DNA of 64,000 nt from an uncultured Nitrososphaeraceae archaeon (GCA_963825865.1 CAWGVG010000015.1:1-64000); one strand, 5' to 3'. Counted from the stretch's first letter, positions 35,544 through 61,258 are shown. Program-made: numbers and translations. The notes: generated by a model not told the origin, from the sequence alone.

Positions 35544-36136
35544 TTATCAATAGGTTAACTATCAAGTCTCCATAATGCCCAATGTTGAGAAATATACTCT
35601 GTTATCAAGTTAAGTTAATTTAAAACTACTGCACTCTTCTTAGCTGAAAATCAGTAATTAATAGGCTTATTTCAACAATATCAATTTCGATTGTCTATAT
35701 CTTTGTATGTTTCTTATGTGCCTACAGGTTCTGGATTACTAAATGCTATCCAGTTAAAATCCACCACTTCGCCAAAACATGCTGTATCATTCATCCACAA
35801 TCTGAAACCAAAAGATGGTTGTGTGTGATGTTGATAATTGTGTATATTGGCACTGTTAATTGCATCTCCCCTGCTTTCTCCTAAATCCCGTGGAGAGATT
35901 CTAGGGTCTTTACGTTGCTAAAGAATCTAACAAGCTTGGAGTTTTGGTTTTCCTTTTTCTTTTATGTAAAACGATACAACCGCAAAATCTTTGGTAACTA
36001 TTAATTACATGTAATTGACTTACTATCTTCGCAAATCAAAGGAGCATTCACTTACTTTTGAATTGAATCGTGCTAGTAAATTTATTTTCGTTAGAAAGTT
36101 TATATTTTCATCAAATTATATGAGCCTAAGCTAAGA

Positions 36137-44613: not shown

Positions 44614-44993
44614 GCCATGAAATGAAAACAGAAAGAATACCTTAGTTTTTTTCCTTATATATCTATATTTTTATATAAATATATAATACTTCTAATTAGA
44701 GTATTTTATCAATATATAATATGACTAGTAATACTACTACTACTATTACAACAGCATCAAGTAATAATAATAAAGATAAAGATAAAGAAGAGGAAAAGAT
44801 CATTGTGTTTTGTAAACAGAGTAGAGATTGATATGGCAATCTATCAAAAAAGCATGAAGATGTGTACTATAAAGAAACATATGATAGAGAGACAGGGAAA
44901 CCATGCTTTGAAAGAGTATATCTAAAGAATAATAATAATAAAACAAACTAATAAGTTAGTCCGTGCTACCATAGTAATACTAGTTAGTTAATT

Positions 44994-45608
44994 ATGTCGT
45001 CAACAACAATACCAGCATCAGTATTATCCACACTAACAGAGGAAGAACAAAAGAAATATCAAGAGAGATTAGCTGATAAAAGTAAGCCGTATTATTATGG
45101 ATATGATATCGAAAAAGATGCAAATGTAATTGTATATCCAGTCTCGAATGTCGATGAAGGTAAATCAATTACTCTTGATATAGCAAGAGGCAGAGGATTA
45201 CAGCTATATCCAAAAAGGAATATTCAGATAATGAACAAAATAAGAGGCATGGTAGTTGGAATGGGAGGATGTGGTCCTATAGATTCGATCCCCGGTGGTA
45301 TAAAGCAGCTTACAGAAGCTAATAGTGATGAGTTTACTATTAACTACATACTTGAAGACTTAGAAAAAGAAAAGAAGGTAGTCAAGGTATATGATTACAA
45401 GTTAGTTGGACCAGCATGGAATACACCAGACTGGGAGAAACCTCATAGAGAGTATGATCCTATTAAATTCAAATGGTATACGATAGAAAAAGCTGAAGTT
45501 GATGGTGTCCTTGAGATAAAGTGCAGGTATTGTAGTAAAAAGTTTCCTTCAGAACATGACATGAAAAAGCATTTCAACAATAGCCATACCCCACGACGTA
45601 GGGTATAG
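44994..45608 (+). CDS. C2H2 zinc-finger protein, module copy 1
   Basis: CRYCSKKF..HFNNSH; highly similar to 53735-54205. Confidence 0.8.
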   Translation: MSSTTIPASVLSTLTEEEQKKYQERLADKSKPYYYGYDIEKDANVIVYPVSNVDEGKSITLDIARGRGLQLYPKRNIQIMNKIRGMVVGMGGCGPIDSIPGGIKQLTEANSDEFTINYILEDLEKEKKVVKVYDYKLVGPAWNTPDWEKPHREYDPIKFKWYTIEKAEVDGVLEIKCRYCSKKFPSEHDMKKHFNNSHTPRRRV

Positions 45609-45700
45609 TAGTAGTAGTATTATTAGTAGTGCTACTACTATCAGAGCATAAAGAATAAAGCTTTCCTTCATCATTATATAATTTGAGATAATAATCAAAA

Positions 45701-46173
45701 ATGATTGATAGTAATAATATGGCTGAAATGATGAAGGACATCTCAATTTATAATTTGGACCCATATAGGAAGATGGTGAAAAATACTAAAACCGGAGCAT
45801 ACATTATTTGCAATAATTCAACTAATGAAGTGGAAAGTAAAGGAGTGATAAATCCTAATCCTAATCCTCCTCCTGCTCCTGCCTTGAGTACCAGCATCAA
45901 AAAGGTTCTGAGCAAAATAATATTGTTGATAACAGCTTTGCTCTAGAGATGTATGGACTAGTGAATCTATGTTCGGGTAAAACAAGTACTTATGAAGATA
46001 TTCAAACTAACTATATGTCTGCTTATCCTTCTTCTCATCAACAACGTCAATATTTGAAGGGTTCACATCAGCAACAGAGAAATAATAACGTCAATAATAA
46101 TATACTGGCAATAGAGCTGTACGAACAGCTTGTTAACCAGTTTATCGGAGGAGGTAATCATAATGGCTGGTAA
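45701..46173 (+). CDS. Q/N-rich hypothetical protein, module copy 1 (frameshifted)
   Basis: RKMVK..YIICN, ALEMYGLVN, AYP..QYLK, AIELYE..GGGN.NGW; collinear with 54308-54733. Confidence 0.75.
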
Positions 46174-46309
46174 GAAATATAGTAAAAATATCAAACCAAA
46201 AACAGCACCGGGCTTGGAATCGAGTCATGGTCCTTTATCTGCTGACTCTTCGGTAAGTGGTAATCCAACTGTATTAGCTCCTAATAGAAAATCTAAGAAA
46301 GCAAAGTAA
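46163..46309 (+). CDS. 48-aa basic micro-protein, module copy 1 (not in ORF track)
   Basis: MAGKKYSKNIKPKTAPGLESSHGPLSADSSVSGNPTVLAPNRKSKKAK; GGAGGT RBS upstream; conserved paralogue at 54723. Confidence 0.75.
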   Translation: MAGKKYSKNIKPKTAPGLESSHGPLSADSSVSGNPTVLAPNRKSKKAK

Positions 46310-46463
46310 GTAAGGTAGTTAGTTAGCTCGTTAGCTAATAATATGCAAAAAAACGGCATAACTGAGCACAACCAGTTTACATGTACATTGTATATTGTCT
46401 ATAAGATAATATAAGATAATGTATAATATATAATATATTTATGATTGATTATTTATAATATAT

Positions 46464-46599: not shown

Positions 46600-46828
46600 C
46601 CAACTATCGTAGATTAGCATTTTCTGACATGTTCTGATAGGGTTGGACCATATTTTAAGCCAAAATATAACATATAATAATAATAATATAATGACTACTG
46701 AACTAAAGTTCTGGATTGCAATGCTGTTATTATTAACTACTATGCAATTTGGTATTGCTGGTTTCAGATTTTTGTTATCAAAATAATTAATGATGATAAC
46801 AAGAGAGTATAATTATAACTTGCCTCTA

Positions 46829-47060
46829 ATATACAGCTAGAAGGAATGGATGAAGAGGGAAAAATAAAATAGTAGATAACAAGAAGTTAACTTGCTCCCT
46901 AACATTTGACTTGATTGTTTCTCACTCAGGATAATAGTAATAATATGATATGATATAATAGTAGAAGAATAATAATACTCACTCATTATTATATTATATT
47001 ATTTTATTATCATTATCCTGTCTCTCATTCTTTCCTTCCTTCCATTTCTATTATTATTAT
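46829..47060 (+). repeat. structured long-hairpin repeat, copy 1
   Basis: GAAGGAATG..GAGGGA / AACAAGAAGTTAACTTGCT / CAGGATAATAGTAATA ... ATTATCCTG TCTCTCATTCTTTCCTTCC. Confidence 0.8.
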
Positions 47061-47195
47061 TTACCACTACTACTATTATCTACTACTTCCGTACATAGAA
47101 GGATATGATTTTTCTACAAAGAGATTGATTGTTTCCATTTGAAAGTAAATAAATAAAAAAGAATAATAAAAATAACTGTTTATTAACAAATCTAG

Positions 47196-47933
47196 TTGTC
47201 GTCAGAAGCCGATATTTCTCTTAATTTTCCAGAGAAGAGTATATCAAAGACACCGATAAAGACATCAATAGATGGGTTAAAAAAAGATATTAAATCCAAA
47301 GAAAAAGATAGTTCTACAAAGCTACAAGAATTTCTAAAAAAATACGAAAAAGAGTTCAAGGAAGACCTTGTTTATAAAGGAATAGTCTATGATATTACAG
47401 AAACTGAAGTATTGTATATGATGAAAGGTGCTTTGACATTATATGCATTAAACCTGAATGGTCAGGTGTTAATTGAATTAGCAGGCCTTCTTGAAAGATA
47501 TGCTATTGTATACATAGAGGAATTAAAGTCACTACGTTCAGTTCAACTGTTTTCTGATGGACAACATGCAATTGAGGAAATCTTGGAAAAGAAGTTCCTA
47601 GATGAACTTGCTAAACATCTGATTACGTTAGGATTATGGGATAAAGAGGATTTTAAAGAGGTAGAAAAACTACTTAAAAAACGTAACTACGTTGCACACA
47701 AGAATGTAAAGAAAATCAAAGGAATGTTAAGTTCTAGCAAAAGCATTTCAATTCCTGAAATAGATATTGCCATGTCAGGCTTTGACGTTCTGCAGTTTAT
47801 GTTTATCACAATTCGACTCTTGTTCAAATTAGTTGATAGGTTTTTTATTAAGACTGAGAGGTATAGAATAGCAAAAGATCTTTTAGATTCAAAGATAATG
47901 GATGAATTAGAATATTTTAAAACAACGAATTAA
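47196..47933 (+). CDS. putative HEPN-domain protein
   Basis: All-helical; ELAGLLE upstream and R-x4-H motif RNYVAH. Confidence 0.55.
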   Translation: MSSEADISLNFPEKSISKTPIKTSIDGLKKDIKSKEKDSSTKLQEFLKKYEKEFKEDLVYKGIVYDITETEVLYMMKGALTLYALNLNGQVLIELAGLLERYAIVYIEELKSLRSVQLFSDGQHAIEEILEKKFLDELAKHLITLGLWDKEDFKEVEKLLKKRNYVAHKNVKKIKGMLSSSKSISIPEIDIAMSGFDVLQFMFITIRLLFKLVDRFFIKTERYRIAKDLLDSKIMDELEYFKTTN

Positions 47934-47985
47934 AGTAAACAAAGAAATAATTATTTCCCATTATTATATACACACATACACACAA

Positions 47986-49114
47986 TTATTGGGGATTAGA
48001 CCTTTTACTTGAAAATTTCTTTGTTGCTACCTTCATATGTATATAGTAGGACATCAATATAATGAATATAGTGGTAACAGGTATTACAGCTATAATATAT
48101 GTATATAGTGGGAATTGTATATTGTAAAGTATCAATATAAATGTGTTAGAAAGGGTAGTGTAAACAAGTATTACAGCTATACTATATTTCAATAATGCTC
48201 TGAACCTTTTTTTAAGATATTCCTCCCAATTTGTATTCTTCAGAATTTGTTCTGATAGATATACATACTCTTCATTATAGATTTTTAAGGCATTCTCATT
48301 AAGAGAATGGTATGAGATAATTCTCCCGTCTCCTATTTTCTACGAATAATTCTTCAAATCGTCTATACTCATCAAAGCATAATATCTTTCTCATTCTAAG
48401 TTTCTTAGATTTACTCCAGTCTTGCAATTTGCCCTTATATAGAGAATTTTGATTAAGCATTTTTATAACTTTCATAATCTTCTTTTTTTCTTGTTCCAAT
48501 ATTGAATAATTTCTCACGGTAATAATTGGATTCATTATTAACGTCTTGCCAAAAATGAGCACAAATTCAATTATAACGGAAAGACCTAAAAGAAATATAG
48601 GATTTGATAACGGATTAGGTGGTGAAGATGTAAATGTTTTACGTTCCTCACCAATTTTGGCTGTTGCTTGATTACTTCCATCATCATGATTTGCAAGTAT
48701 AATAAAAGACCCAGTCTGGTCAAATTTTGTAAATTTTATATCAAATGCAATAGAATTATCTCCAATTATTGATCTATTAAAGGTAGCAATTCTCCCTTGA
48801 GTATATGGTGGTAACTTGGTTAAGTCAGTGATAGTTATCTGTTCAGCAGTAACTCCTTCTGGATTAACATTATCTATTTTACCAGGGGGGTCCGTATACA
48901 TTGCTAACCTAACATTTTTTGCCGTTTTTAATCCTGTATTGGTAATTGTTGCATTACCAGATGAATTATCTGAAGATATTTTAATTGTAATATTTATCAA
49001 AGGTTTACCGATAAAGTCATTATACAAGATATTGGCTAAAAATACAACTAGTCCACTACCTATGATAATTGATATAATATTTAAAAGTGAAACTTTAGCA
49101 GTATTCTCTGCCAT
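47986..49114 (-). CDS. membrane protein with Ig-like extracellular part (probably one frameshifted gene)
   Basis: N-terminal TM, ITNTG..AKNV, second TM, C-terminal TM pair in 47986-48192. Confidence 0.6.
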
Positions 49115-49198
49115 CCTTATACTGTTGTTATATTGAACAATTATTTATAGACGACACCAATCCAACTATTGAGGATCAGTCTTTTGCTTCAAGACGAC

Positions 49199-49376
49199 GA
49201 AGGAATGAATGAAGAGGGAGAAATAATAACAAGAAGTTGACTTGCTAATAACATCTTCATTTTACTATCAGGATAATAGTAATAATATGATATGATATTA
49301 TAGTAATGGTAAGCAGAACCAGCTCACTACTATTATATTATTATTATCAATATTGCTATTATCCTGCTGTCTCTTC
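49199..49376 (+). repeat. structured long-hairpin repeat, copy 2
   Basis: GAAGGAATGAATGAAGAGGGA / AACAAGAAGTTGACTTGCT / CAGGATAATAGTAATA ... TATTGCTATTATCCTG..TCTCTTC. Confidence 0.8.
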
Positions 49377-52300
49377 GAAAAGAGACAGGACACAAGTAAG
49401 AAAGCAATTTTTACATGGAGTAAATACGAGAAAGAAATTCCCAGCATAGATGAAATAAACAACTGGTTTAACTCTCAAATGGTAACGATGATCTGTAAAA
49501 ATAACATTGCCATAGTAACGGGCATCATATCCAGACTTTTAGTAATTGACATAGATGGTGAAGAATGCATAAAGCTATTTTATGAGATGGTTCAAAACAG
49601 GTTATCGGATAACTTACAACGTGAGATTGTCAATACACTAGCTGTTAGAACTGGTAGTGGGGAGGGTTTACAGATATATCTCAGATTCAACATTGAGGAA
49701 AAAGAAAACCCTCCAAACTTTTTCTTTACCCCCACCACTTGAACATAAAGAAATTAGAATAAAATGTAATGGTAGTTATGTAATAGGCTTGAACTCAAAA
49801 ACTAAAAATGAATATAAACTCAATTCTGAGGAGAAGAAACTAATTGTATTATTTTCCAAAAAAGAGATTAATGAATTACTTAGGGCTTTAGAACATATTA
49901 AGACTACTACTACTAGTAATGATGGTAATACTGGTAATAGGTACTACTAATAATAGTAAAAATGAACAAACCATCAAATTAGATGTAATCGAAATAGACA
50001 GGAACACAATCGTTAAAGGATTGTTATTCTAAAGGAAGGAGAGATGACATTGTATTTGCATTATCTGGATATTTACATAGAAGATACATAGATTAGCAAT
50101 CTACCATTGAAATTGTAAATTCTCTAATAACTCTATCAGAAGAGGGAAATGATGAAGAGTATAATTCTAGATTAAATGTAGTTCGTAGGACATACAAAAA
50201 GGATAGAAATAGTGATGAAAGTTACTGGACATAAATACTTACTATCAACGTTATCATCTATTTTAGATAAGGATGAAGTTAGAGCAAAACAAATTCTGCA
50301 TTCTGAGATAAATTCAGTAATAAATAAGGCATTAAAAGATGCTGGTTTTTCTTTTAGAATTGTTGATAATAATAATAACAACAATGATGACGATCCACAA
50401 GAAGAGGAAGAAAAAAAGTCAGCAGAAGAAAACAAACTCACTAAAGAACAGATTGATTTTGTCATAAATACAATGAAAAAGGAAGAGCATATGATGAACT
50501 ATCAATAAAACAGTTATTTTATGGAATGGATACTGCTTTTACTAAACGTCCTGCTTCTCATAATGTCAATTCAAAGATTCTGGGTTCAGGTAAAAATTAT
50601 TTGATGGAGTTAGTTTCTAACTATTTTCCCGAAAAGTATGTTATAAACATAAACCACATGTCAGACAAGGCAATTTTTCACAGAGAAGGAATTATGGTTA
50701 GAGAAAATCATGAAACTGGCAAACTTGAACCAATAAGACCTATAATAAAAAACCTTGAATCTAAGATTGAAGACTTACAAGAGCAAATTGAAACTGAAAG
50801 GCAAAAAAATAACAACCCTCCTACAGAAGAAAGTAGAAAACTGATTAAGGATAACAAAAAAAGAATTCAGGAAATCAATGAAGAGATTAAGGATATAGAA
50901 CAACATGCATTAAAGCAAATTGACCTTAACAATCAGATAATTCTCTGCCTCGATACACCACAAGAATCAATATATAATTCATTAATGAGCTTAGTCAGTC
51001 AGGATACTAAAAGAGGACAGAAGTATGAATTTGTAGAAAAATCAGGAATCTGGTAAACTAGGTACAGAAAATAATGTATTAATTGGTACTCCATTTATAT
51101 GCACCAGTCAGGTAATAGATGATACAAAAGGGGAACGTTTCCAAGAAAAGAATAGAAGGTTTACCAATGTAAACCCTGATACAAGTGATAAAAAAATTGG
51201 TACTGCAAATGATATAATTGTATTGCAAGGTGGCTACCTACCAGAAGAGTATGACGAACTGGTAGTAAGTAGATCAGATAAGGAAAAAGCCAGAAATATA
51301 GTCAAAATCATCGTAGCCAAGTTAAAGTAGCATACAAAGCACTTAGGCCCAAAAGAACACGGCATAAAGATTCCATTTGCTCTATCAATATCAGCATGTA
51401 TACCAACGACTCATGTTTGGAGTATGACGGTCACAGATAGAATAATGAAAATATCTTGCTATAATCACAAAAGTAAATATGGATTCAAGGCCAAAACTGC
51501 TAGACGTAAACACAGGTAAATTTTATCCTATATCTACGTACGTGGACTTTAAGGAAACTTTGAATTTAATGCAAGTTGCTGCTAGTGGTGTTAGGCCTTA
51601 CCTTGTAGACTGGTTCAATAATAGATTTCTTTCTGTATACAATGATTTAGGAGGAAAGCCAGATAAGATATACAATGATGATATAGGTAAATACGTAACT
51701 GTATCAAAGGAAAAACGTGCTGGACTTACAACCAAACAGATAGCAGATAGAATTGGAGAAAAGTTTGGAGGGTTAAAACTAAGCACTAAGGAATGTTATG
51801 AAAAAGAACCTAATACCTCTAATTAATCTGGGAATAATAGACCATATCGAAAGTGAGATAAGGAGAAATCAGCATATCTATTTTCCGGTCCAAGAAGATA
51901 CCCATCTATTCCATATTTTTGATTAAAAAGCTGGCCTAAAACTAAAAATACCAAGTCTTGAAAGATTTCCTAGTAAGAATTTTCTGAAATCACAATTTGG
52001 AATCTTGTCAAAGTCATCGTTTTTGGGGGGTGATATTTTTGAAAAAAATATTTCTTCATATAAGTTGGTAGATGTTGATGGGTCAGAGATTACAATAGAC
52101 CAATTGATAGAAAAATACTTTACAAATCCCGAAGAATGCTTTGTTAAAACATACAAAGAAGATTGAAGATAACACTAGCAATAAACAAGATAATAATGGT
52201 AATGGTAATGGTAGCACCTTAGAGACTTTGTTAAAATTAAAAGCAAGGCTACCAGCAATATACTATATCAAAGTCAGATTTTGATGAAACAAAAAAATAA

Positions 52301-52549
52301 TTTTTTTTCTCACCCTTCTGTAACGATGACTTTTACGAGATTCTCTAACAATAATATAGAAGAATGTAAACAGAGGAAAAGCAAGAACAACAAGATCCTG
52401 TAAATACTGCTAGTAAAAAGTTCAAGTGCTTTTATTGTGATGAATATTTCTATAGTAATGATGTATTGAAGAAATCACAGAGAGCAGTGTACCATCCTGA
52501 TAAACGTCTAGACTATCCTACTCCAGAGGACTTTGATAATCGAATGGAG
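49377..52549 (+). pseudogene. bifunctional prim-pol fused to P-loop ATPase/helicase, C2H2 tail; heavily frameshifted, 5'-truncated
   Basis: NIAIVTG..LLVIDIDG, VRTGSG.GLQIY, GSYVIG, GRRDDIVFALSGYL, GSGKNY (Walker A), KFKCFYCD tail. Confidence 0.75.
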
Positions 52550-52717
52550 TTATAGGGGAGCAGCTTTTCGTGAAGCTACTTACTAGAACCAAAATAGGAC
52601 AACACAAAAACCATATACCATTTTATGCTGTCCTAGTCATGATTTAGAATGACAAAAGAGATTGTTATTTCAAACAATAAAAGCATTTTTGATTCTAGTG
52701 AGGTGTGTAAACTAAAA

Positions 52718-53254
52718 ATGACACCAACAGAAGTTATGAATGCTCAAACATTTGGATTTTCTGTCATAACTATAGCAATAGCAGTAGCATCTGCTATTGT
52801 AGGTATCTTGTCATTCCACTATAATAGTAAGATGAATAAACTAAACTCATTAGTAAAAGCCTTCGAGATTATTAAACGATAATGCTCATAGAAATGCTAG
52901 AATTAGGCTATATAGAGTAGCAAGAGCTTCCACACCATCACAGACAGGAAGCACACTTAAGATTGTTGGGTGTAGAAGACAAAGATCTAAGAACTATAGT
53001 CGGAGAATCTGAAAATATGGTATTGGCAGATTTTGATCAGATGGGAACTTTAGTTAAAAACAAACTTCTTCCTGTAAACGAATTTCTGAACGTTTATTGG
53101 AATACTATTATATCAACCTATGAAATAATATACACGAACGATAAAAGAGATTCTCTATAAGGATTTTGAATTTCTTATATGCTAAGGCTAAGAGCTCAGA
53201 GACGAAAAAGATCCAAATAAACAAATTCCATTGGAAAAAGAAATTTATCGTGTA
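52718..53254 (+). CDS. DUF4760-like membrane-anchored protein (frameshifted)
   Basis: N-terminal TM, then LADFDQMGTLVKNKLLP..FL..YW..II, Y..FEFL. Confidence 0.5.
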
Positions 53255-53270
53255 AAGCTTTTCGGTACAG

Positions 53271-53624
53271 GTGCAATGTAACCAACAAATATCTATTGGA
53301 AAAACCCAAACTATTAGTGTAACAGTCAGTGACTCTTTTGAGGCAGTATATGGTTTTCCGTATGGCAGTGTTGGAAATGTGTATAATGCTGAAGTGTGTG
53401 TCAAAGTATCTGATAAGGAATCAGAAAGTTTGGTTATTTCATTAGATACACAAAAAACTGATGTACATGGTAATACTGAATTTCAAGTATCAATAACAGA
53501 TAGCTACTTCAAAGTTGGAAAGACGTATAATGTTAAAGCCTTTATATCAGCAAAAGGTTATCGAAATTCTGAATCAGGATATAAAGTATTTTTTACTGTT
53601 AACAACTCTCAGGACTATATCTAA
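53271..53624 (+). CDS. Ig-like beta-sandwich hypothetical protein
   Basis: Beta-rich; TDVHGNTEF, YNVKAFISAKGY. Confidence 0.5.
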   Translation: MQCNQQISIGKTQTISVTVSDSFEAVYGFPYGSVGNVYNAEVCVKVSDKESESLVISLDTQKTDVHGNTEFQVSITDSYFKVGKTYNVKAFISAKGYRNSESGYKVFFTVNNSQDYI

Positions 53625-53734
53625 TATATCTATATTTATATATACAGATAATACCACTATCATATGAAAAATAATATGACGACTGTCATTAGTAGTATAC
53701 GTACTAGTATTGATAAGGATGATAAGATTGCATC

Positions 53735-54205
53735 GTGTTTGCTAAAATTTGCAGAGACAGATACGGTCTTAATGAGGCAAGAGGAAGAGGACTACAGCTA
53801 TATCCAAAGAGAAACGTCCACATAATGAACAAGATTAGAAGCATGGTAGTTGGAATGGGTGGGAGTGGTCCTATAGATTCTATCCCCGGTGGTATAAAGC
53901 AATTTACAGAAGCTAATAGTGACGAATTCACCTGTAATTATATTCTTGAAGATCTGGAGAAGGAAGGAAGTGTAGTAAAAGTATATCCTGTTATTAAGAC
54001 TGGTCCCGGTGATCCAAGAGATAATAGCTATTTTGGTCATCCTGTAAAGGAATATTCAAAGACTGGTTACAAGTGGTATACTCTACAACGAGCTGAAGCC
54101 GATGGTGTTCTTGAGTTACGTTGTCGGTATTGTTCTAAAGTATTCAAGACTGATAAGGAAAGGACTAAGCATTTCAACAATAGCCATACCCCACGTAGGG
54201 TATAG
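53735..54205 (+). CDS. C2H2 zinc-finger protein, module copy 2
   Basis: ARGRGLQLYPKRN..SIPGGIKQ.TEANSDEF..CRYCSK..HFNNSHTPRRV. Confidence 0.8.
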   Translation: MFAKICRDRYGLNEARGRGLQLYPKRNVHIMNKIRSMVVGMGGSGPIDSIPGGIKQFTEANSDEFTCNYILEDLEKEGSVVKVYPVIKTGPGDPRDNSYFGHPVKEYSKTGYKWYTLQRAEADGVLELRCRYCSKVFKTDKERTKHFNNSHTPRRV

Positions 54206-54307
54206 TAGTATTATTAGTAGTAGTAGTACTGCTGCTGATATCATAGCATAAAAGATAAAACAAACTATCTTCATTATATAATTTGAGATAATAATCAAAA
54301 ATGATCG

Positions 54308-54733
54308 TTGGCAGATATCTTGAAAAATATAAGTGTGCAAGATCTAGGGGAAGGAAGGAAGATGGTGAAGCACACGAACGGCAGTTATATAATATGCAAT
54401 GGGAACCAGATCGAGCAAAGAGGTTTTGTAAATCCTGATCCTCCTGCTGCTACTCAGTACCAACAACAGCAACATCAATTGCAAAAAGCTACAATTCAAC
54501 GTAATAATAGCAATGCCCTAGAGATGTATGGATTAGTAAATAAGATAACTGGTAGATCGGACATTTACGATAATATTGAAACTATGACTACTGCTGCTTA
54601 CCCTCATCAAGGTCAATATCTAAAAGCATCAGAACAGCAACAAAGAAGTAATAATAATAATAGAAATGCAATCGAGATGTATGAAATGATTCAAAGCTTG
54701 TTCGGAGGAGGTAATAACATCAATGGCTGGTAG
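54308..54733 (+). CDS. Q/N-rich hypothetical protein, module copy 2
   Basis: Intact 141-aa paralogue of 45701-46173. Confidence 0.8.
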   Translation: MADILKNISVQDLGEGRKMVKHTNGSYIICNGNQIEQRGFVNPDPPAATQYQQQQHQLQKATIQRNNSNALEMYGLVNKITGRSDIYDNIETMTTAAYPHQGQYLKASEQQQRSNNNNRNAIEMYEMIQSLFGGGNNINGW

Positions 54734-54866
54734 TAATAAGAAGAAGTATAATATCAAACCCAAAACAGCACCGGGCTTGAATGCAAGTCACTCCCCTTTA
54801 AGTGCCGATTCTATAGGTGGTAATCCTACAACTATAAATCCACGAAAAGCCAAGAAACCAAAGTAA
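54723..54866 (+). CDS. 47-aa basic micro-protein, module copy 2 (not in ORF track)
   Basis: MAGSNKKKYNIKPKTAPGLNASHSPLSADSIGGNPTTINPRKAKKPK; GGAGGT RBS upstream. Confidence 0.75.
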   Translation: MAGSNKKKYNIKPKTAPGLNASHSPLSADSIGGNPTTINPRKAKKPK

Positions 54867-55356
54867 AAAGTTAGTTAGTTAGCTCGTGTATTATATAATT
54901 ATATAATAATAATAATAATTATAATATGATATCAACAAGAACGAAAAAACAGGATAAAGATAAACAAAATAATAAAGAAGCTATTGTTATAGCAGCAATG
55001 CGAGCAAAAGAAATTATGGGAAAAATACTTTTCTACCGACAATCCTATGATTAAATTTGAATGCTTGAGTAAGCTCCACGATCTCACATTAGACTTAGTA
55101 AACCTACAATATAGTGCTTACATGCAGAATTATAATTTTGATCATATCAAGAAATCTTCATCACCATTGAAGAGAGGTTATAAGCTTTCTAATTCACCTA
55201 ATACTAGGATGATACTAAGCAGGTTTATCAATAATAATGATGAGGATCTTCGATAACTATTAACACTATTCGTGTTAATAATAGCACGATTTATCAACAC
55301 TTTTAGCTACTAATATCATAATAGTAATAATAATAACGACAGAAGGAAGAAAGAAA

Positions 55357-55905
55357 ATGTCAAAGCTAACAAAAGAGCAACGTGAGGAACTAAAACATCT
55401 GGTACTAAATGGTATTGTCCATCATTTTACAATGTCTGAAATCCAGCAGTATATACTACAGAGCAAGCTAAAGACACAAATCAGTATTGACTATATCAAG
55501 CATCTGAAACTAGAATTAAAAAAGGATTCAAAGAAAGAATTAGATTATCTAGCTAAAGACAGATTTGCTTATACCCATTCTATATTCTTTGAACGACTTG
55601 AAGAGCTAAAATCATATCAAAGGACTCTGCATAATATAGTTTTGAACAATCAAGATAAACCAGAAGCACAGGTTAAGGCAATATCTGAGTTGAAGGATAT
55701 CACATTAGAGATTGTAAACTTGTATCAAATGTTACCTGTTATAGTAAGCAATCCTGGAGTACATGTAACTACTGTAGTAGATGATAATAATATTAATATT
55801 AATAATAATAATAATTACTCTACAAGAACAACAACAGCAACAATAAAACAACATCCAGACGGCTGCAACTGTACTGAGTGCTATGATCCAGAAGCAAAAT
55901 TCTAA
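55357..55905 (+). CDS. HTH/helical protein with C-terminal HxxxCxCxxC
   Basis: N-terminal HTH-like region, helical bundle QVKAISELKDIT, tail HPDGCNCTEC. Confidence 0.65.
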   Translation: MSKLTKEQREELKHLVLNGIVHHFTMSEIQQYILQSKLKTQISIDYIKHLKLELKKDSKKELDYLAKDRFAYTHSIFFERLEELKSYQRTLHNIVLNNQDKPEAQVKAISELKDITLEIVNLYQMLPVIVSNPGVHVTTVVDDNNININNNNNYSTRTTTATIKQHPDGCNCTECYDPEAKF

Positions 55906-55923
55906 CAGCAAGAATAAAAGGAG

Positions 55924-55952
55924 ATACAGTATAAAAGGGGATTATACTGTAT
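55924..55952. terminator. perfect 11-bp inverted repeat at CRISPR trailer (terminator or recombination site)
   Basis: ATACAGTATAA-aagggga-TTATACTGTAT followed by a T-run. Confidence 0.55.
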
Positions 55953-55956
55953 TTTT

Positions 55957-56316
55957 ATGTCAATCCTACCATAGTTCGATTCAAACAAGGCTCAAACGTG
56001 CCTGGTACTGCTGACTTATATCCCTTTCAATCCTACCATAGTTCGATTCAAACGTTCCTATCTGTACTAGTCCCTGGTGTTCCTGCTTCCTTTCAATCCT
56101 ACCATAGTTCGATTCAAACTCTTTTTTGTAAATAATCTGGGAAACCTGTTATTTCCTTTCAATCCTACCATAGTTCGATTCAAACATAACAGCAGATATT
56201 CTAAACGTTCATTATGCTTTCTTTCAATCCTACCATAGTTCGATTCAAACTTTCTGCTGTTGTAATGCCTGCTCCTGTTCTATGATCTTTCAATCCTACC
56301 ATAGTTCGATTCAAAC
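55957..56316 (-). CRISPR. CRISPR array: 6 x 30-bp repeats, 5 spacers of 35-37 bp; no cas genes in window
   Basis: CTTTCAATCCTACCATAGTTCGATTCAAAC at 56024, 56090, 56156, 56221, 56287; degenerate ATGT- copy at 55957. Minus strand reads GTTTGAATCGAACTATGGTAGGATTGAAAG with a class-1-like ATTGAAAG 3' handle. Confidence 0.97.
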
Positions 56317-56450
56317 TCCCTACTAATACATCCTAAATACACCCTTTATCTATAAACTTTCAGGGTCAACCTCCGATAATGCATTCTCTTTATAAATGCT
56401 AACCATTTTCAGAGGCATAATAAAAATTATATAATGAAGGAGGATTTAAA
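56317..56450 (-). promoter_or_regulatory. putative CRISPR leader
   Basis: AT-rich non-coding stretch on the side opposite the degenerate repeat; contains GTCAACCTCC and TTTATAAA boxes. Confidence 0.65.
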
Positions 56451-56485
56451 AAGTCTACACCTCTTAATGCTGGATTGAGGTTAAG

Positions 56486-56779
56486 ATGTCATCTCCAACC
56501 CCTAATCTAATCGAATGGCCAGCCCTTTACCTTATTGCCCAAGTTATAGGGTTTATAGTAGCAATAATAGTGATATTAAAAGTTACACATGATATTACCA
56601 AGAAGCTTACCAGTATAGAAAAAGATGTTGAATATCTCAAAAATACCGTAGAAAAACATACAGAAAAACTAGAAGAATTCACGTATACATATAAGGCAGA
56701 CATATTAGTCAGGCAAGCTCTAGATAAAGCTGAAGAAAAGAAAAAGAAAGAAAGAGAAGGAGAAAAGAAGAAAGAATGA
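56486..56779 (+). CDS. TM + coiled-coil small protein
   Basis: One TM helix then heptads; overlaps the next ORF (ATGA). Confidence 0.65.
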   Translation: MSSPTPNLIEWPALYLIAQVIGFIVAIIVILKVTHDITKKLTSIEKDVEYLKNTVEKHTEKLEEFTYTYKADILVRQALDKAEEKKKKEREGEKKKE

Positions 56780-57039
56780 GCAGTATTCCAATAGACTACA
56801 GTAATGAGAAGATGGATTATTTAATGAAGAAGATGTATCTTCATATGCTGACAAAAGAGGAAGCAAGGGAACTTATGCTATTGGTAGAAAAGGAAAAACA
56901 AAAAGCAGTAAAGTATGATGACAAGGAATACCAAGAAATTTTGTCTGGTTTACTGGACTCATTGAAGATGTATATGGCAGGAAAAATTAATCTTTATGAG
57001 AGCAGTATTGTTGATAGGTTGAAAGTTTCAAACGTCTAG
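56776..57039 (+). CDS. small helical hypothetical protein
   Basis: Translationally coupled to 56486-56779. Confidence 0.6.
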   Translation: MSSIPIDYSNEKMDYLMKKMYLHMLTKEEARELMLLVEKEKQKAVKYDDKEYQEILSGLLDSLKMYMAGKINLYESSIVDRLKVSNV

Positions 57040-57152
57040 TAATCGGTTATCATTAATGTATATCATGTTTATCATCAAGCAATCCATTATCACCGAGAAA
57101 CAAAGAAAAAGAAATAATTAATTATTACTTGTCTCTATTATTGTGATTCGAA

Positions 57153-57458
57153 ATGACAAATAATAATAATAATAATAATAATATAATAATCGTCGATGTT
57201 ACAGTTGCAGACAACCAGATTCGAGCATTGAAACCAAAAGATGAATATCAAACTATGTTAATGCCAAATACTGATACTGAAAAATTATTATGGTGGAATT
57301 CTGTAGATCCAGGTAGGCTTAACAATCGTCTCTATGGCACCTTGAAAGGCCAAGCATTGAAGAAAGCACAGAAATTAGTTGATTCTCAAGGATCAATTTC
57401 TACGAGTGGAGAATATGGCAGTATAGAAATTTCAGAAGAAGATTTTATTCCACTTTAA
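57153..57458 (+). CDS. hypothetical protein
   Basis: ATG-start 101-aa ORF. Confidence 0.5.
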   Translation: MTNNNNNNNNIIIVDVTVADNQIRALKPKDEYQTMLMPNTDTEKLLWWNSVDPGRLNNRLYGTLKGQALKKAQKLVDSQGSISTSGEYGSIEISEEDFIPL

Positions 57459-57639
57459 AGTAAAAAATAAAGAATAAGAAAAATATAATATAATATAATA
57501 TAATGTCTAAATAAAATATCAATCAAAGTATAATTATAACTTGCCTCTCAAAGTATAATTATAATTTACACCATATAGGATAAACGTAAATCAATCAGTC
57601 TTTTGCTTCAAAATATAGAGGGGGTTATACTGTATTTTT

Positions 57640-57780
57640 ATGTCAATCCTACCATAGTTCGATTCAAACTAATTAGTGCACTTACCTCTACATTCAAGAC
57701 ATCTGACTTTCAATCCTACAATAGTTCCATTCAAACGTTTGAGTCAGCCCTAATGCTATTTCTATATGTAATTCCTTTCA
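57640..57780 (-). CRISPR. second, truncated mini CRISPR array (2 repeats + 6-nt stub, 2 spacers)
   Basis: Repeat 57640-57669 (same ATGT- degenerate form), 37-bp spacer, repeat 57707-57736 (2 mismatches), 38-bp spacer, CTTTCA stub at 57775-57780. Confidence 0.88.
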
Positions 57781-57828
57781 CTTGATAAACAAAGAAATAA
57801 TTCCTTATTACTATTATAGCCTAGAGGA

Positions 57829-58752
57829 ATGAGCCATATTACTGAAGAACCGTTTTCAAACGAACTTTTCTCTGCAAGGGTACTTCCAACTCTTTTACTG
57901 ATTGTTATGCCATTTGCTTGGGGAATAATATTGCCATATCTTTTTCCAATTTTTCATTTTCACCAGAGCATAGTTATACCAACAATAGGCAAGCACCCAG
58001 TAGTTCCATTCGATTATCTTACTATTGTCATTGTCTTTCCTCCGGGACTTCTTTTTTTCATGTTTTATTATCATTATCGTTTAGCCTTTGCTGACAACTA
58101 TTTTGAAAAAAGAGGTTACCAAATTGCAATTAACGAATATGATTACATAAATAAAGTTCTATATATTGAAGTTGTGCTAATAATTATCTTAACACTTCTT
58201 TTTTATACTCTTCCTCCATCCATGAAAGAAGGCTATTTATCTCCATTACTAGGAGATGGATTTTATTTCCTACAGGCAACATTAATTATTACTGTATACA
58301 ACACGTTCTTTACTTTGAGCTTTTCATATGGTCAAAGAGATTTTAGATTTGAATTTGCAAAAGCCTGTATGAATGTCATTGAAAATAAGAAAGATGAAGT
58401 TAATAAAATCTATTACTTAATGCTAGGATTAGACTCATACAACAAATTCCTCAAAAGAAATATAAAACTTCAGTTTGATGATACAATGGTTTGTTCAAAA
58501 ATAATCTCATCATCTGAGAAAAATCAATCACTTAATTTGATAACTGCATCCTTTAAAGATAATGATAAATTAAAACCAGTTAGTTGCCTATCTAATATTA
58601 TAAAACTTCCTGATAAGGGACAATTTTTGGTAAAAAAACCATTAAAGGGTAAGATAAAAGATGCTGTAACAATTCTAACGGCTATAATTCCTATAGTAAT
58701 TTCGATACTTCAGTTGATGTTTCCAAAATATTTTCAAATGCTACTCAAGTAA
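57829..58752 (+). CDS. multi-pass membrane protein (cargo)
   Basis: About five TM helices, DFRFEFAKAC, GLDSYNKFLKRNIKL; intact 307 aa. Confidence 0.75.
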   Translation: MSHITEEPFSNELFSARVLPTLLLIVMPFAWGIILPYLFPIFHFHQSIVIPTIGKHPVVPFDYLTIVIVFPPGLLFFMFYYHYRLAFADNYFEKRGYQIAINEYDYINKVLYIEVVLIIILTLLFYTLPPSMKEGYLSPLLGDGFYFLQATLIITVYNTFFTLSFSYGQRDFRFEFAKACMNVIENKKDEVNKIYYLMLGLDSYNKFLKRNIKLQFDDTMVCSKIISSSEKNQSLNLITASFKDNDKLKPVSCLSNIIKLPDKGQFLVKKPLKGKIKDAVTILTAIIPIVISILQLMFPKYFQMLLK

Positions 58753-58868
58753 GCAAAAATAATTATGCTTGGAATATTTTTAACTACCCTCTTATGCAGG
58801 TATAGCCAAATTATACAAGGACCGATTAATTATATAATAAGAAAGGTATACTAAAAAATAAAAACAAG

Positions 58869-59095
58869 TAAACAAAGAAATAATTATTTCCTTGTTGCTA
58901 TTATACAGCTAAGAAGGAATGAATGAGGGAAAACAAATAACAACAAGAAGTTGACTTGCTGAACATCTTCATTTTACTCTATCAGGATAATAATAGTAAT
59001 ATGATAGTAGAGTAATGGTAATCAGCTCATTATTATATTATTATTGTTATCCTGTTCCTTCATTCCTTCCTTCCTTTCTATTTCTATTATTTACT
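58869..59095 (+). repeat. structured long-hairpin repeat, copy 3 (most complete)
   Basis: Outer arms 58913-58931/59055-59073 and inner arms 58983-59012/59026-59054 pair with G-U-type mismatches. Confidence 0.85.
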
Positions 59096-59207
59096 ATCAT
59101 ACATTGAAGATGCTTAGGTTATGCACAATATATTCAAAAATTTCCAATCATCAATAGCTTCTACTTGATCACTTTTAACTGACAAATTCATTGTTTCACT
59201 GAGTAAT

Positions 59208-60927
59208 TTGGCAACCTCAGCAGCATGCCAGTATAAAAATGAATTTTATGTTGACTTTACATGTGACCAACCCACCAGAGACACAGAAAGCAAATTCTGT
59301 ATATTTCATGATACAAATTATCTTAAAGACGATAACTATGATAAACACAAGGAAGAAGTAACAAAGAGATTTGAAGATAAACTATCAGAATATTCTTCCA
59401 AAAACATGCCTTTGAAATTTATAGGCTATTGTTTGCCAGAGATTTCATTTAAAGATGAGAAATTTAGTGAAGAGATTCACTTTAATGAAGCCACGTTTTC
59501 TGGAGTAGCAAACTTTGATGGAGCTACATTCTCCAAAAAAGCTCACTTTGATGGAGCTAAATTCTCCGAAGAAGCATACTTTAGTTATGCTACATTCTCC
59601 AAACCAGCTCACTTTTCTGGAGCTAAATTCTCCGAAGAAGCAAACTTTTCTGTAACCAAATTCTACGAAGAAGCAAACTTTTCTGTAACCAAATTCTACG
59701 AAGAAGCAAACTTTTCTGGAGCTACATTCTCCAAACATGCATACTTTTATAGAGCTACATTCTCCAAACGAGCAGACTTTTATGGAGCTACATTCTCCAA
59801 ACCAGCAGACTTTTCTGGAGCTACATTCTCCATAGCCGAGTTTGAAAAGGTCAGGTTCGTAGAGATAGCCAACTTTGATGAAGCTGAATTCAAGGTAGCA
59901 GAATTCACTGAAGTTACATTTTCTAAAGAAGCTAATTTCATTTATGCTAAATTTTCAAACTTAGATTTTTCTCACACTAAATTCTTAAATGAAGTTCGTT
60001 TTTCAGAAGAAAAAAAAATAAAAATTTTTGATGGTGAAACTTTATTCAGATACACAATTTTTGAGCAGCCCAACAAGGCTATATTTGATACAAATGATTT
60101 ATCCAGGGTATCATTTGCTGGTAGTGACATATCTAAGGTAACTTTTACAGATAAAGTAAGGTGGGGTGGAGATGACGGTCTGAAGGTGATTGAAGAAGAA
60201 TGGTTAGAAAAATTAGGAAAGGAAAAGAAGCTAGAAAGTGAACACGAACAAGAAAATGAAATCAAACGAATAAGCTTGGACCTTGTATTATATGTATATC
60301 GTAGGTTAAGAGAGAACTATGAGTTCAAACTCAAATTTGACGAAGCAGGTAAATTCTTTATAAAAGAAATGGAATTAAAAAGAAAGTACAGAGAAGCTCC
60401 TTCACTATCTGCTGTTTTCAAACGTAAATTAATTAAATTCCTTAAGAAATTAAAACTTGTAAATGCTAATGTACAAGAGCCAAAGATTGAATATGTTCTT
60501 AAACAAAATGGAAGACTCAGAAGACATTTCTCGTTAACTGGTTTGTATTATCATCTTTCTACTTATGGTGAAAGCATAGTTAAACCAACTATAATTGGTG
60601 CAATAACGGTTGGACTTTCAACATTGTTTTGGCTACTTCAAAATAATCCAACAGTCGAACCTTCTATTTCTTTTATTGCTAATAATAAATTACATATGGC
60701 TAAAACAGACTTCTGATTTCATTAATGCTACTCAGATTTGGAACAATACACATACATTGAAGGCTTTTGAAAGAAGTCTTGCAGATTTTCTCCCTTTGCT
60801 TTCATTACCAGGTGATATCAAAGTAGGAGTAATAGATTATGTTATCAAAATAGTAGGTGGTGCTCTTACTTTCGGTCTTCTTCTAATAGCTTTGAGAAGG
60901 AAATTTGAAAGAAAATATACACGTTAA
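59208..60927 (+). CDS. pentapeptide-repeat protein with C-terminal membrane region (frameshift ~60670)
   Basis: N-terminal C..C..CIFH, many A.F..A.F repeats, YRRLRENYE, AGKFFIKEMELKR, YGES, IALRRKFERK. Confidence 0.9.
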
Positions 60928-61018
60928 TTACAGCCTATGCAACAATATTTAGTTTAATCAATTTCTCTATTTTAATAATTATTCAAAAGACTTGGTTCGT
61001 TGAGATCAATCATGAAGC

Positions 61019-61258
61019 TTATTCATCCTTATCAGCTAAATCAGTAGTAGTACTGGTAGTATTAGATTTATTACTATTACCGGATTTAGATTTCTTCTTC
61101 TTCTTATCCTTCTGTATATATGGAATGTCAGTCAGAGTATTTGAGATATTATCCCGGCATGTAATAGCCTTGTGGCTTGTGTCAATGCTATACATAAGAT
61201 CCATCAATGGTTCAGTATCTTTATTTCTGTCTAGGTCTTCAATTGACTTTCTTGCCAT
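61019..61258 (-). CDS. hypothetical protein / fragment
   Basis: Short ORF with K/S-rich tail. Confidence 0.35.
   Translation of the reverse strand: MARKSIEDLDRNKDTEPLMDLMYSIDTSHKAITCRDNISNTLTDIPYIQKDKKKKKSKSGNSNKSNTTSTTTDLADKDE

Follow-up and report, generated by a model that had tools for sequence, protein, structure and literature searches.

What is the ~200-nt hairpin that recurs three times in a mobile-element island of this uncultured Nitrososphaeraceae archaeon: a structured RNA, a site that acts at the DNA level, or a relic? An earlier note on the window, by which we mean the whole 64,000-nucleotide stretch analysed, had proposed either an undescribed structured ncRNA or 5′ leader, or an attC-like folded recombination site. 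Our analysis lends some support to the RNA half of this proposal and none to the attC half. We favour the reading, at a rough probability of 0.45, that the hairpin is a structured RNA specific to the island, made on its own as an sRNA or serving as a 5′ leader; the element would be the promoter-proximal, transcribed portion of a + strand RNA from an archaeal integrated mobile element. This reading gains support from the better fold of the + strand, from the helix differences between copies 1 and 3, and from an upstream module whose predicted start site falls at the foot of the helix.

Sequence reading, a repeat finder (families D14 and D17), a MAFFT alignment and a covariance model located three copies on the + strand, at 46838-47046 (copy 1), 49197-49378 (copy 2) and 58911-59081 (copy 3), confirming that a ~200-nt hairpin stands before three different genes. 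Mean column identity in the alignment is 71%. The covariance model scores copy 3 at 175.3 bits, copy 2 at 169.4 bits and copy 1 at 156.7 bits (E-values of 1e-27 to 1e-31), while reverse-strand echoes reach only 24-42 bits. Distances of 2.3 and 9.7 kb, filled with many genes and two CRISPR arrays, separate successive copies, which occupy the most AT-rich stretches of the island (GC 0.29-0.31). No reading frame conserved among the three copies was found.

The hairpins, ~170-210 nt long and AT-rich, are built on a common plan: an outer purine/pyrimidine helix whose arms are inverted repeats of ~18-20 nt, a bulge of 50-66 nt, and a long AT-rich inner helix spanning 26-45 bp. A 19-nt side motif sits inside the bulge, where it would form a 4-bp mini-hairpin; it is identical in copies 2 and 3 and differs at one position in copy 1. 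Reading and alignment of the sequences agree with the earlier description of outer arm, side motif and inner stem, except that copy 2 retains only ~10 nt of the 3′ outer arm. The label "G-U-rich" was overstated, as G-U accounts for ~10% of the pairs. Copy 3, which is complete and the most regular, has an inner helix of 26 uninterrupted pairs, 4 of them G-U, and a helix drawing confirmed that the inner helix of copy 1, complete and the longest, exceeds it on both arms. Low-complexity, AT-rich sequence makes up the inner helix; in such a DNA palindrome, slippage and arm-to-arm copying could maintain pairing without selection on an RNA. Homology between copies 1 and 3 extends beyond the helix by ~30-45 nt upstream and ~20 nt downstream, which means that more than the palindrome was duplicated. 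Rearrangement has left copy 2 as a relic that runs into a decayed prim-pol gene. Its left junction lies exactly at the foot of the outer helix, beside a CRISPR-leader-like sequence whose 18 nt at 49175-49192 recur unchanged at 57594-57611; its right junction falls within the 3′ outer arm, which is cut after ~10 nt and joined to the prim-pol remnant. Counting a comparison with contig C42 described below, three rearrangement junctions fall at or inside outer arms, suggesting a DNA-level property too.

The genes next to the three copies differ. Downstream of copy 1 lies a 245-aa ORF (47196-47933, + strand), earlier called HEPN-like; an R-x4-H motif is indeed present, but the ORF has no match in Pfam, NCBIfam, PADLOC or PDB, so that it is HEPN-like by motif only. 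Its nearest named Atlas cluster is DUF4145, a family carried by only 12% of the cluster members. Relatives occur in 22 of 200 family genomes, and the four closest loci have no hairpin. Beside copy 2, the decayed prim-pol gene (49353-49950, + strand) is split into two overlapping frames (49353-49742 and 49657-49950); its PF09250 match (E 5e-8) covers profile positions 23-103 of 158, in line with the 5′ truncation reported before. Just upstream of copy 3, a gene at 57829-58752 (+ strand) encodes, on translation, a 307-aa multi-pass membrane protein. Its frame opens only 3 codons before the ATG and its homologues align from residue 4-23 onward; among 200 family genomes, 29 have relatives, and contigs C42 and C19 carry paralogues. 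Downstream of copy 3 comes the pentapeptide gene noted earlier (59208-60716, + strand; PF13576, E 7e-37), coding for a 502-aa protein with a C-terminal hydrophobic segment; none of its paralogues on several other contigs is accompanied by a hairpin. The two are separated by a 114-nt module (59103-59216, + strand) that is 85.6% identical to C6:42107-42224. Since the module on contig C6 has no hairpin upstream, the 3′ limit of the element lies at or before 59102.

The surrounding island appears to consist of two related elements placed one after the other, in which copies 1 and 3 hold equivalent places. A gene module at 44988-46331 is repeated at 53726-54887, both on the + strand, with 68% nucleotide identity over 1193 columns and products that are 48-67% identical in amino acids. 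At the left of the island, a tyrosine-recombinase-like gene (37617-39148, + strand) matches PF00589 with an E-value of 8e-4 and 19.6 bits, a score below the 27.1-bit cut-off. A box-I-like stretch lies in frame 1 and the RRHS...Y region in another frame from ~38600; the description of the island as integrase-bearing thus holds for a recombinase-like gene, but one whose frame is broken. This gene has many paralogues genome-wide (65-81% nucleotide identity). The island also encodes an MCM-family helicase (40230-41894, + strand; PF00493, E 2.4e-29) and a PriX-like protein, and it contains CRISPR arrays without cas genes; no Cas1 was found in the assembly. Contig C62 carries an 83% identical MCM paralogue, in an island that has no hairpin copy.

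Copies 1 and 3 directly follow a common sequence module, a putative archaeal-type promoter made of an A/T box and a conserved initiator-region block. The predicted module before copy 1 (46806-46839, + strand) aligns with the one before copy 3 (58866-58912, + strand), with 57786-57828 and with contig C42. Over its first 22 nt it matches 57527-57548, within the mini-CRISPR array 2 leader, at every position. An extra A/T-box part, at 47933-47958 (+ strand), lies directly 3′ of the stop of the 245-aa ORF and equals 58866-58891 in 26 of 26 nt. The module therefore occurs at 46806, 47933 (partial), 57527 (partial), 57786 and 58866, plus C42, and a hairpin stands behind two of these. The module also occurs, with the same GGAATG, where the 307-aa gene starts (57829), within the mini-CRISPR array 2 leader and at C42:36502-36520, in a paralogous island that has the module and no hairpin. 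In the predicted promoter of the 307-aa gene (57786-57831, + strand), the ATG of this GGAATG is the start codon. The new observation is that copies 1 and 3 stand behind a module that elsewhere probably drives the 307-aa gene and forms part of a mini-CRISPR leader. In archaea, the TATA box is centred ~26-27 bp upstream of the transcription start. By this distance rule, transcription would start at ~46838/9 for copy 1, where the first paired G is 46840, and at ~58908 for copy 3, where it is G58913, that is 1-5 nt ahead of the first paired base. Applied to the 307-aa gene, the rule predicts a ~4-nt leader and hence a near-leaderless mRNA.

The hairpin is restricted to this island and is known from one genome only. 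Beyond the three copies, which lie on one contig within 12.3 kb, none was found in the 4.98-Mb assembly (82% complete), and no relative was found in 237 genomes of the same family, in plasmids or phages, or by motif scans of viral, genome and metagenome contigs. Rfam 15 gave 0 matches at or above the gathering threshold in the whole 64-kb window.

All three copies fold far better than dinucleotide-shuffled sequences, and the + strand is favoured. RNA minimum free energies of copies 1, 2 and 3 are -62.6, -51.5 and -60.4 kcal/mol on the + strand against -55.2, -46.2 and -48.0 kcal/mol on the - strand, an advantage of 7.4, 5.3 and 12.4 kcal/mol. The corresponding z-scores are -5.8, -5.2 and -8.0, with 0 of 200 shuffles folding as well. 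DNA energy parameters narrow the strand gap of copy 3 to 3.8 kcal/mol. The ratios of G-U pairs to A-C mismatches, the equivalent of G-U pairs on the opposite strand, are 6:2, 5:2 and 6:0 in three copies that are not independent of each other. Neither the predicted 5′ region of the 307-aa mRNA nor that of the C42 transcript folds in this way (z of +0.4 and -2.4, respectively). As these regions also bear the promoter module, the rod belongs to the element and not to the module.

Copies 1 and 3 were compared over 51 modelled pairs, in an alignment fitted to the structure and thus biased toward pairing: 37 pairs are unchanged, 8 carry one-sided changes and are kept through G-U, 2 have changed on both sides and still pair, and 4 are broken in one copy. 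Identity is 85/102 in paired columns and 41/66 in unpaired ones. With no relatives beyond one genome, covariation is confined to the three copies, and this check, named in the earlier note, gave no support: the 2 double changes are not significant, a figure reached by 139 of 500 shuffles.

We propose that the structured RNA would be formed as follows. The island-specific promoter module, with its A/T box ~26 nt before the helix, would start transcription 1-5 nt ahead of the outer helix, and the first ~20 nt of the RNA would include an AUG, whose counterpart in the sister promoter copy would open a near-leaderless mRNA. The 5′ nucleotides would pair with a pyrimidine tract ~170-200 nt downstream and close a rod, in which the outer helix is followed by the single-stranded bulge with its 19-nt motif and by the inner helix. 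With its 5′ end and AUG buried, the RNA would be non-coding, and the exposed bulge would be its likely recognition surface for a protein or another RNA; any regulatory role is putative. On the 3′ side, the RNA may end in a T-rich tract after the helix, as an sRNA, or continue as the 5′ leader of the next gene. No run of at least four Ts follows the helix, which makes a terminator doubtful. Copies 1 and 3 would be counterparts in the two tandem elements, and copy 2 a rearranged relic.

It is rather unlikely that the hairpin is a functionless neutral relic, in which an inverted duplication gave a palindrome that was copied with tandem duplication or integration of the element and kept paired by slippage and arm copying. 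The confinement to one genome, the non-significant covariation, the low-complexity AT-rich inner stem and the visible decay of copy 2, alongside the decayed prim-pol and integrase genes, are all in keeping with such an origin. However, copies 1 and 3 have diverged about as far (71% identity) as the neighbouring duplicated genes (68%), and yet both remain near-perfect rods. Pairing was kept in 8 of 12 one-sided changes, where a rough unselected expectation is a quarter to a third, and the bulge motif is almost invariant.

We also regard as somewhat improbable a role in DNA recombination, in which the palindrome and the repeated promoter module would be a preferred crossover or breakage point that swaps cargo between related elements, by homologous exchange, by hairpin-stimulated illegitimate events or through a recombinase acting on a folded strand. 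Both junctions of copy 2 fit this view. Alignment of the C42 island with the window breaks off after the first 12 nt of the 5′ arm and picks up again 2.2 kb further on; between the 307-aa gene and a small - strand ORF, the two islands therefore carry different cargo. Moreover, the module 3′ of copy 3 occurs on C6 without the hairpin, and the promoter module is repeated at least five times in the island. But C42 is a single comparison pair and its right-hand junction has no hairpin; any repeated sequence would be expected to gather junctions, attC core sites and an integron integrase were not found, the one nearby tyrosine recombinase gene is frame-broken, and double-stranded recombination leaves the G-U bias of the + strand unexplained. 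A close described parallel is the PeSL (promoter-early stem-loop) cassette of T4-type phages, which, according to PMC2839356, combines a strong promoter with a stem-loop, is repeated in a variable region and mediates such shuffling; PeSLs are also treated in PMC4122927. Both systems are promoter and stem-loop composites repeated in a mobile genome, each beside a different gene of unknown function. Differences between related genomes map to PeSL modules, which also give rise to circles; here, one paralogous island, C42, diverges 12 nt into the 5′ arm. The PeSL stem-loop is short and GC-cored, precedes its promoter and terminates transcription of the gene before it, whereas the present hairpin is ~170-210 nt long, AT-rich and downstream of the promoter, in whose own transcript it would lie; the host is an archaeon and the sequences are unrelated.

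The two ideas could be joined, although we find this quite doubtful: the rod would be the founding example of an archaeal mobile-element RNA class, and the same sequence would mark cargo-exchange points between co-resident elements. With similar reserve, a leaderless-mRNA-derived 5′ end locked in a helix would display a conserved single-stranded motif, and the cargo would be defence-type genes and mini-CRISPR arrays.

A role in replication seems improbable, whether as an origin hairpin or as a structured primer RNA made from a promoter, one for each copy of the element. The stem-loop origin of plasmid pRN1 lies near its prim-pol gene and ColE1 replication is primed by a structured promoter-driven RNA; here there is about one hairpin per tandem unit plus one beside the prim-pol remnant, in the most AT-rich stretches of an island that encodes MCM, PriX-like and prim-pol proteins. 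Repeated initiator-binding boxes were not seen, however, copies 1 and 3 lie 5-17 kb from the MCM gene amid cargo genes, and the related C62 island has no copy. In layout, the hairpin also recalls structured leaders and sRNAs of plasmid replicons and type III toxin-antitoxin loci, in which a promoter, a structured untranslated RNA and a T-rich tract precede a gene possibly harmful when over-expressed. It differs from these in having no tandem RNA repeats, ToxN-like toxin or identified antisense partner, and in that the downstream genes differ between copies.

An attC-like cassette site is not supported. The length of the hairpin is roughly double that of a typical attC. When the three copies and their flanks were scanned with regular expressions on both strands, no R″ (RYYYAAC) or R′ (GTTRRRY) core turned up inside any element; the sole match begins at the first base of the copy 2 flank, ~37 nt outside. 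The recombinase-like ORF, whose frame is broken, matches no NCBIfam family at E≤0.01 and thus no integron-integrase model, and short cassettes in an array are lacking. A better explanation for copies 1 and 3 is that they mark equivalent places in the two tandem elements. Like the attC sites of integrons, including archaeal ones (PMC9668308), the hairpin is an imperfect palindrome with a preferred strand, cargo neighbours and a tyrosine recombinase in the island; unlike attC, which lies at the 3′ end of promoterless cassettes, it stands upstream of genes and behind a promoter-like module.

That the hairpin is a MITE, a non-autonomous transposon with terminal inverted repeats, is hardly tenable: the outer arms and the size would suit one, but only three copies exist in 4.98 Mb, within 12.3 kb and in one orientation, no target-site duplication or direct repeat flanks the arms, no insertion sequence has matching ends, and elsewhere the arm motif (≤1 mismatch) occurs only as scattered 14-mers, the one exact match lying inside an open reading frame. 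A retron msr-msd was set aside, as the 82%-complete assembly has no PF00078 (reverse transcriptase) match, and so was a CreTA-like system: for the 6 spacers and 2 post-array stretches, no match exceeds 22 nt anywhere in the genome and none lies in the island, and Cas1 is missing from the assembly.

The island itself resembles the cryptic integrated elements of Thaumarchaeota, which, according to PMC6563490, carry MCM or prim-pol replication modules and stand-alone CRISPR arrays; here, too, an integrase, MCM, PriX-like and prim-pol genes, cargo and CRISPR arrays without cas genes are found together. The words hairpin, stem-loop and MITE are absent from the main text of that paper, in which the element has no described counterpart. 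The present evidence comes from one genome and will carry limited weight unless relatives of the element or transcripts come to light. Hardly any work has addressed the non-coding portions of archaeal mobile elements. If it is an RNA, the hairpin would be a rare candidate for an RNA with a regulatory or structural role in an element of archaea presumably of the soil ammonia-oxidiser type (the marker genes seen are archaeal), and an example of a leaderless-mRNA start turned into a closed helix. As a preferred crossover point, it would instead show how cargo is shuffled between elements in a common host, and if both hold, it would be an archaeal counterpart of cassette systems, independent of integrons.

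Sequence reading, a repeat finder, an alignment and a covariance model trained on the copies themselves concur on three hairpin elements on the + strand of the island, at 46838-47046 (copy 1), 49197-49378 (copy 2) and 58911-59081 (copy 3). The overall architecture of the element is one long rod. The outer helix, in which a 5′ arm rich in purines pairs with a 3′ arm rich in pyrimidines, comprises 17-19 pairs and is separated from an AT-rich inner helix by a bulge of 50-66 nt located on the 5′ side only. This bulge carries a 19-nt motif that contains a 4-bp mini-hairpin and is identical in copies 2 and 3, with one base changed in copy 1. In copy 3 the inner helix runs through 26 pairs without interruption; in copy 1 it is longer, at about 45 pairs, and has small defects. 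Folded as RNA, the + strands of copies 1, 2 and 3 reach -62.6, -51.5 and -60.4 kcal/mol (z of -5.8, -5.2 and -8.0; 0 of 200 shuffles equal), far better than shuffled sequences, and lie lower in energy than the - strands (-55.2, -46.2 and -48.0 kcal/mol). With DNA parameters, copy 3 gives -25.9 for the + strand versus -22.1 for the - strand. Since the methods agree and the folding stands out against shuffles, the long-hairpin observation of the earlier note is confirmed, with corrections. The description as G-U-rich is an overstatement, G-U accounting for only about one tenth of all pairs; the outer arms pair as proposed in copies 1 and 3, but copy 2 lacks most of its 3′ outer arm; and the extent of the element has to be qualified, as the similarity between copies 1 and 3 continues past the helix on both sides. 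A strongly folding stretch at 61.1-61.3 kb was considered as a further copy and rejected, being a divergent intergenic and coding region. Another strong fold lies on the - strand at 52480-52760 (-74.8 kcal/mol, z -5.0), just after the fragmentary second copy of the gene next to MCM; its sequence is unrelated to the element.

Copies 1 and 3 have homologous upstream sequence, in which an A/T box gives way to a conserved block extending to the foot of the helix (46806-46839 and 58866-58912). This putative promoter module also precedes the 307-aa gene (module 57786-57831, gene 57829-58752), where the ATG of a shared GGAATG serves as start codon; the frame is open for only three codons ahead of this ATG, and homologues align from residue 4-23 on. 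Partial modules lie directly after the 245-aa gene (47933) and within the leader of mini-CRISPR array 2 (57527). In archaea, the TATA box is centred some 26-27 bp ahead of the transcription start. Applied to the 307-aa gene, this spacing would give a near-leaderless mRNA with a leader of about 4 nt. By the same rule, transcription would start at about 46838/9 in copy 1, where pairing begins at 46840, and at about 58908 in copy 3, where it begins at 58913. The predicted starts thus lie beside the first paired bases, and the helix would begin at the 5′ end of a + strand RNA. Neither the 307-aa mRNA nor the equivalent locus on contig C42 of the same assembly is unusually structured in its 5′ region (z of +0.4 and -2.4). 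This paralogous island has the promoter module and then other sequence instead of the hairpin. The slot concerned (C42 ~36000-37000, locus L008) contains, in this order, the 3′ portion of a gene of the 307-aa type (89% identical in nucleotides), the module, some 330 nt of different sequence that may hold an ORF of about 60 codons, and the same small - strand ORF that the window has at 61019-61258.

We favour, at a probability of roughly 0.45, the reading of the element as a structured RNA specific to the island, which may be a small RNA in its own right or a 5′ leader. The earlier proposal of a structured ncRNA or 5′ leader thereby stays the most likely one, with folding, strand preference and the promoter module in its favour. 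Such an RNA would be transcribed from the shared promoter module and closed through pairing of its own 5′ end; the helix would bury the AUG that serves as start codon downstream of the sister promoter, and the conserved bulge may act as a recognition surface. A coding function was rejected, no frame being conserved among the copies. The mini-ORFs starting at the shared ATG (8, 11 and 11 codons) are not convincingly conserved, and that of copy 1 is interrupted by an in-frame 9-nt insert with stop codons.

The island extends from a tyrosine-recombinase-like gene (37617-39148) to just short of the oppositely oriented gene of a class I aminoacyl-tRNA synthetase (61922-63922), and no direct repeat of at least 14 nt common to its two sides was found that could mark att sites. 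Self-comparison revealed a module of three to four genes present twice (44988-46331 and 53726-54887; 68% nucleotide and 48-67% protein identity), and likewise two occurrences of a fragment of the gene following MCM, so that the island has the appearance of a tandem of two related elements. Within these, copies 1 and 3 hold corresponding positions, 3′ of the duplicated module and of a shared non-coding stretch, and the second unit has the CRISPR arrays and the 307-aa gene as extra insertions. Copy 2 lies between the two units: its 5′ flank matches a piece of the mini-array 2 leader (18 of 18 nt), and its 3′ outer arm ends after about 10 nt, fused to a prim-pol gene (49353-49950) that is frame-shifted and lacks its first ~22 domain positions. 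That each copy stands upstream of a different cargo gene is true on paper, but the arrangement makes better sense if each related element has one copy and the remaining one is a rearranged relic. A second reading, which we hold to be possible but clearly less likely, takes the element as a recombination-prone boundary between modules. Three rearrangement junctions at or in the outer arms speak for it, namely both sides of copy 2 and the divergence between the C42 island and the window, which separate 12 nt into the 5′ arm and rejoin 2.2 kb later. The RNA and boundary readings are not mutually exclusive.

The neutral alternative, a palindromic relic, is held to be about as likely as the boundary reading, and was weighed against the pairing itself. 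The ratios of G-U pairs to A-C mismatches are 6:2, 5:2 and 6:0 in copies 1, 2 and 3, the pooled 17:4 being an overstatement because the copies share ancestry. Overall identity between copies 1 and 3 is 71%, a divergence similar to that of neighbouring duplicated genes, and 85 of 102 paired columns are identical between them, against 41 of 66 unpaired ones. Among 51 modelled pairs, counted on an alignment fitted to the structure, 37 show no change, 8 have a one-sided difference that G-U pairing accommodates, 2 are changed on both sides but still pair, and 4 are broken in one copy. By a rough reckoning, pairing kept in 8 of 12 one-sided differences exceeds the quarter to third expected without selection. 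Covariation in the three copies is not significant, as the 2 pairs changed on both sides are reached in 139 of 500 shuffles. Moreover, AT-rich low-complexity arms can stay paired by slippage or by copying between the arms of a DNA palindrome. We regard these comparisons as modest evidence that the folded + strand may have been under selection.

The island encodes an MCM helicase, a PriX-like protein, the decayed prim-pol gene, a pentapeptide-repeat protein (59208-60716), a 245-aa protein with an R-x4-H motif (47196-47933) and the 307-aa membrane protein. A replication element is an improbable reading of the hairpin. Cryptic integrated elements of Thaumarchaeota are described with similar gene content and may hold stand-alone CRISPR arrays; the main text of that report does not mention hairpins, stem-loops or MITEs (PMC6563490). 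A MITE is very improbable here: instead of genome-wide dispersal with target duplications there are three local copies with homologous flanks, no duplication and no parent element. The attC-like cassette site of the earlier note is not supported, since no copy (0/3) has core sites, no integron-integrase model matched, there is no cassette array and the position relative to the genes is wrong; archaeal integrons are described as arrays of short ORFs interspersed with attC sites, with an IntI bearing a special domain (PMC9668308). A retron was rejected as no reverse transcriptase was found in the 82%-complete assembly. The two CRISPR-like mini-arrays (55958-56316, 6 repeats of 29 nt and 5 spacers of 36-38 nt; 57641-57736, 2 repeats and 1 spacer) have about 25 nt of their leaders in common and stand on the island without cas genes, related repeats occurring on C42 (two), C44 (one) and C46 (one). 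A CreTA-like system was rejected, as their spacers match nothing in the own assembly and Cas1 was not found in it at 82% completeness.

Several neighbouring features were observed in passing. The recombinase gene is split, by a frameshift or an assembly error, into a frame with a box-I-like stretch ending at 38654 and a second frame from ~38600 with an RRHS...Y catalytic region and, after it, a stretch with four cysteines; its family recurs on many other contigs (65-81% nucleotide identity). The MCM gene and the next gene (40570-42723) have an 83% identical copy on another contig (C62:186167-188376), and the genome therefore has at least one further element of this replicon type, which is without the hairpin. 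A stretch of about 250 nt 3′ of the pentapeptide gene (60742-61003) is found on at least 9 other contigs at 74-95% identity and seems to be the conserved tail of a multi-copy pentapeptide-gene family. A 640-aa ORF at 24471-26393 matches no Pfam family and has several internal direct repeats of 40-115 nt.

We searched widely for relatives of the element. In its own assembly (4.98 Mb, 62 contigs, 82% complete), BLAST and the covariance model returned only these three copies. BLAST against 200 family genomes gave only low-complexity matches of 21-65 nt (best E 5.9e-6), with none at E<=1e-6 in all 237 other family genomes examined; the covariance model had no match in 150 family genomes or in 40 relatives, of which 16 belong to other families within the order. 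One of the family genomes counted (G076) is unpublished, and nothing positive is claimed from it. Nothing related turned up in Rfam, and plasmid and phage collections gave no match. Four exact-motif scans of viral contigs returned 0, 1, at least 119 and 0 stretches, and on 81 retained viral loci the covariance model matched only twice (E 0.31 and 0.71). Two scans of genome contigs gave none and 10 bacterial stretches, the latter unmatched by the model, and a scan of metagenome contigs gave 11, with a top score of 22 bits versus 157-175 for the true copies; the two best appear to be protein-coding. The few motif matches are chance, several falling in apparently protein-coding sequence or unrelated bacteria and failing the model. 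The hairpin is absent from the four closest loci encoding relatives of the 245-aa protein, and promoter modules from all 60 family-genome loci inspected (L031-L050, L185-L224). Long hairpins of other sequence and comparably low GC were not detected in the related islands of C62, C46 and C42 by a k-mer screen that is insensitive, missing copies 2 and 3 and recovering copy 1 only off-centre. Four DNA sequencing runs compared with the window contributed only short contigs in small shares. In two of them, rhizosphere metagenome runs of one study, contig depth in the bin 48808-49408 is 44-50 versus 0-3 elsewhere, which may reflect pieces touching copy 2 or a low-complexity match. Within the range of these searches, the element has no relatives outside this island.

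All evidence comes from one genome. The element there is real and well folded, has a plausible signal for transcription and is confined to a single island. Among described systems it comes closest to the PeSL, a promoter/stem-loop cassette of T4-type phages, which is reported to be repeated beside orphan genes and to mediate modular shuffling (PMC2839356). The stem-loop of a PeSL is a short terminator upstream of the promoter, whereas the helix described here lies downstream of its promoter module; the likeness to a PeSL is therefore partial at best, and the element does not belong to that family. The sequence family is new, while the theme of repeated regulatory cassettes in mobile genomes is already known.
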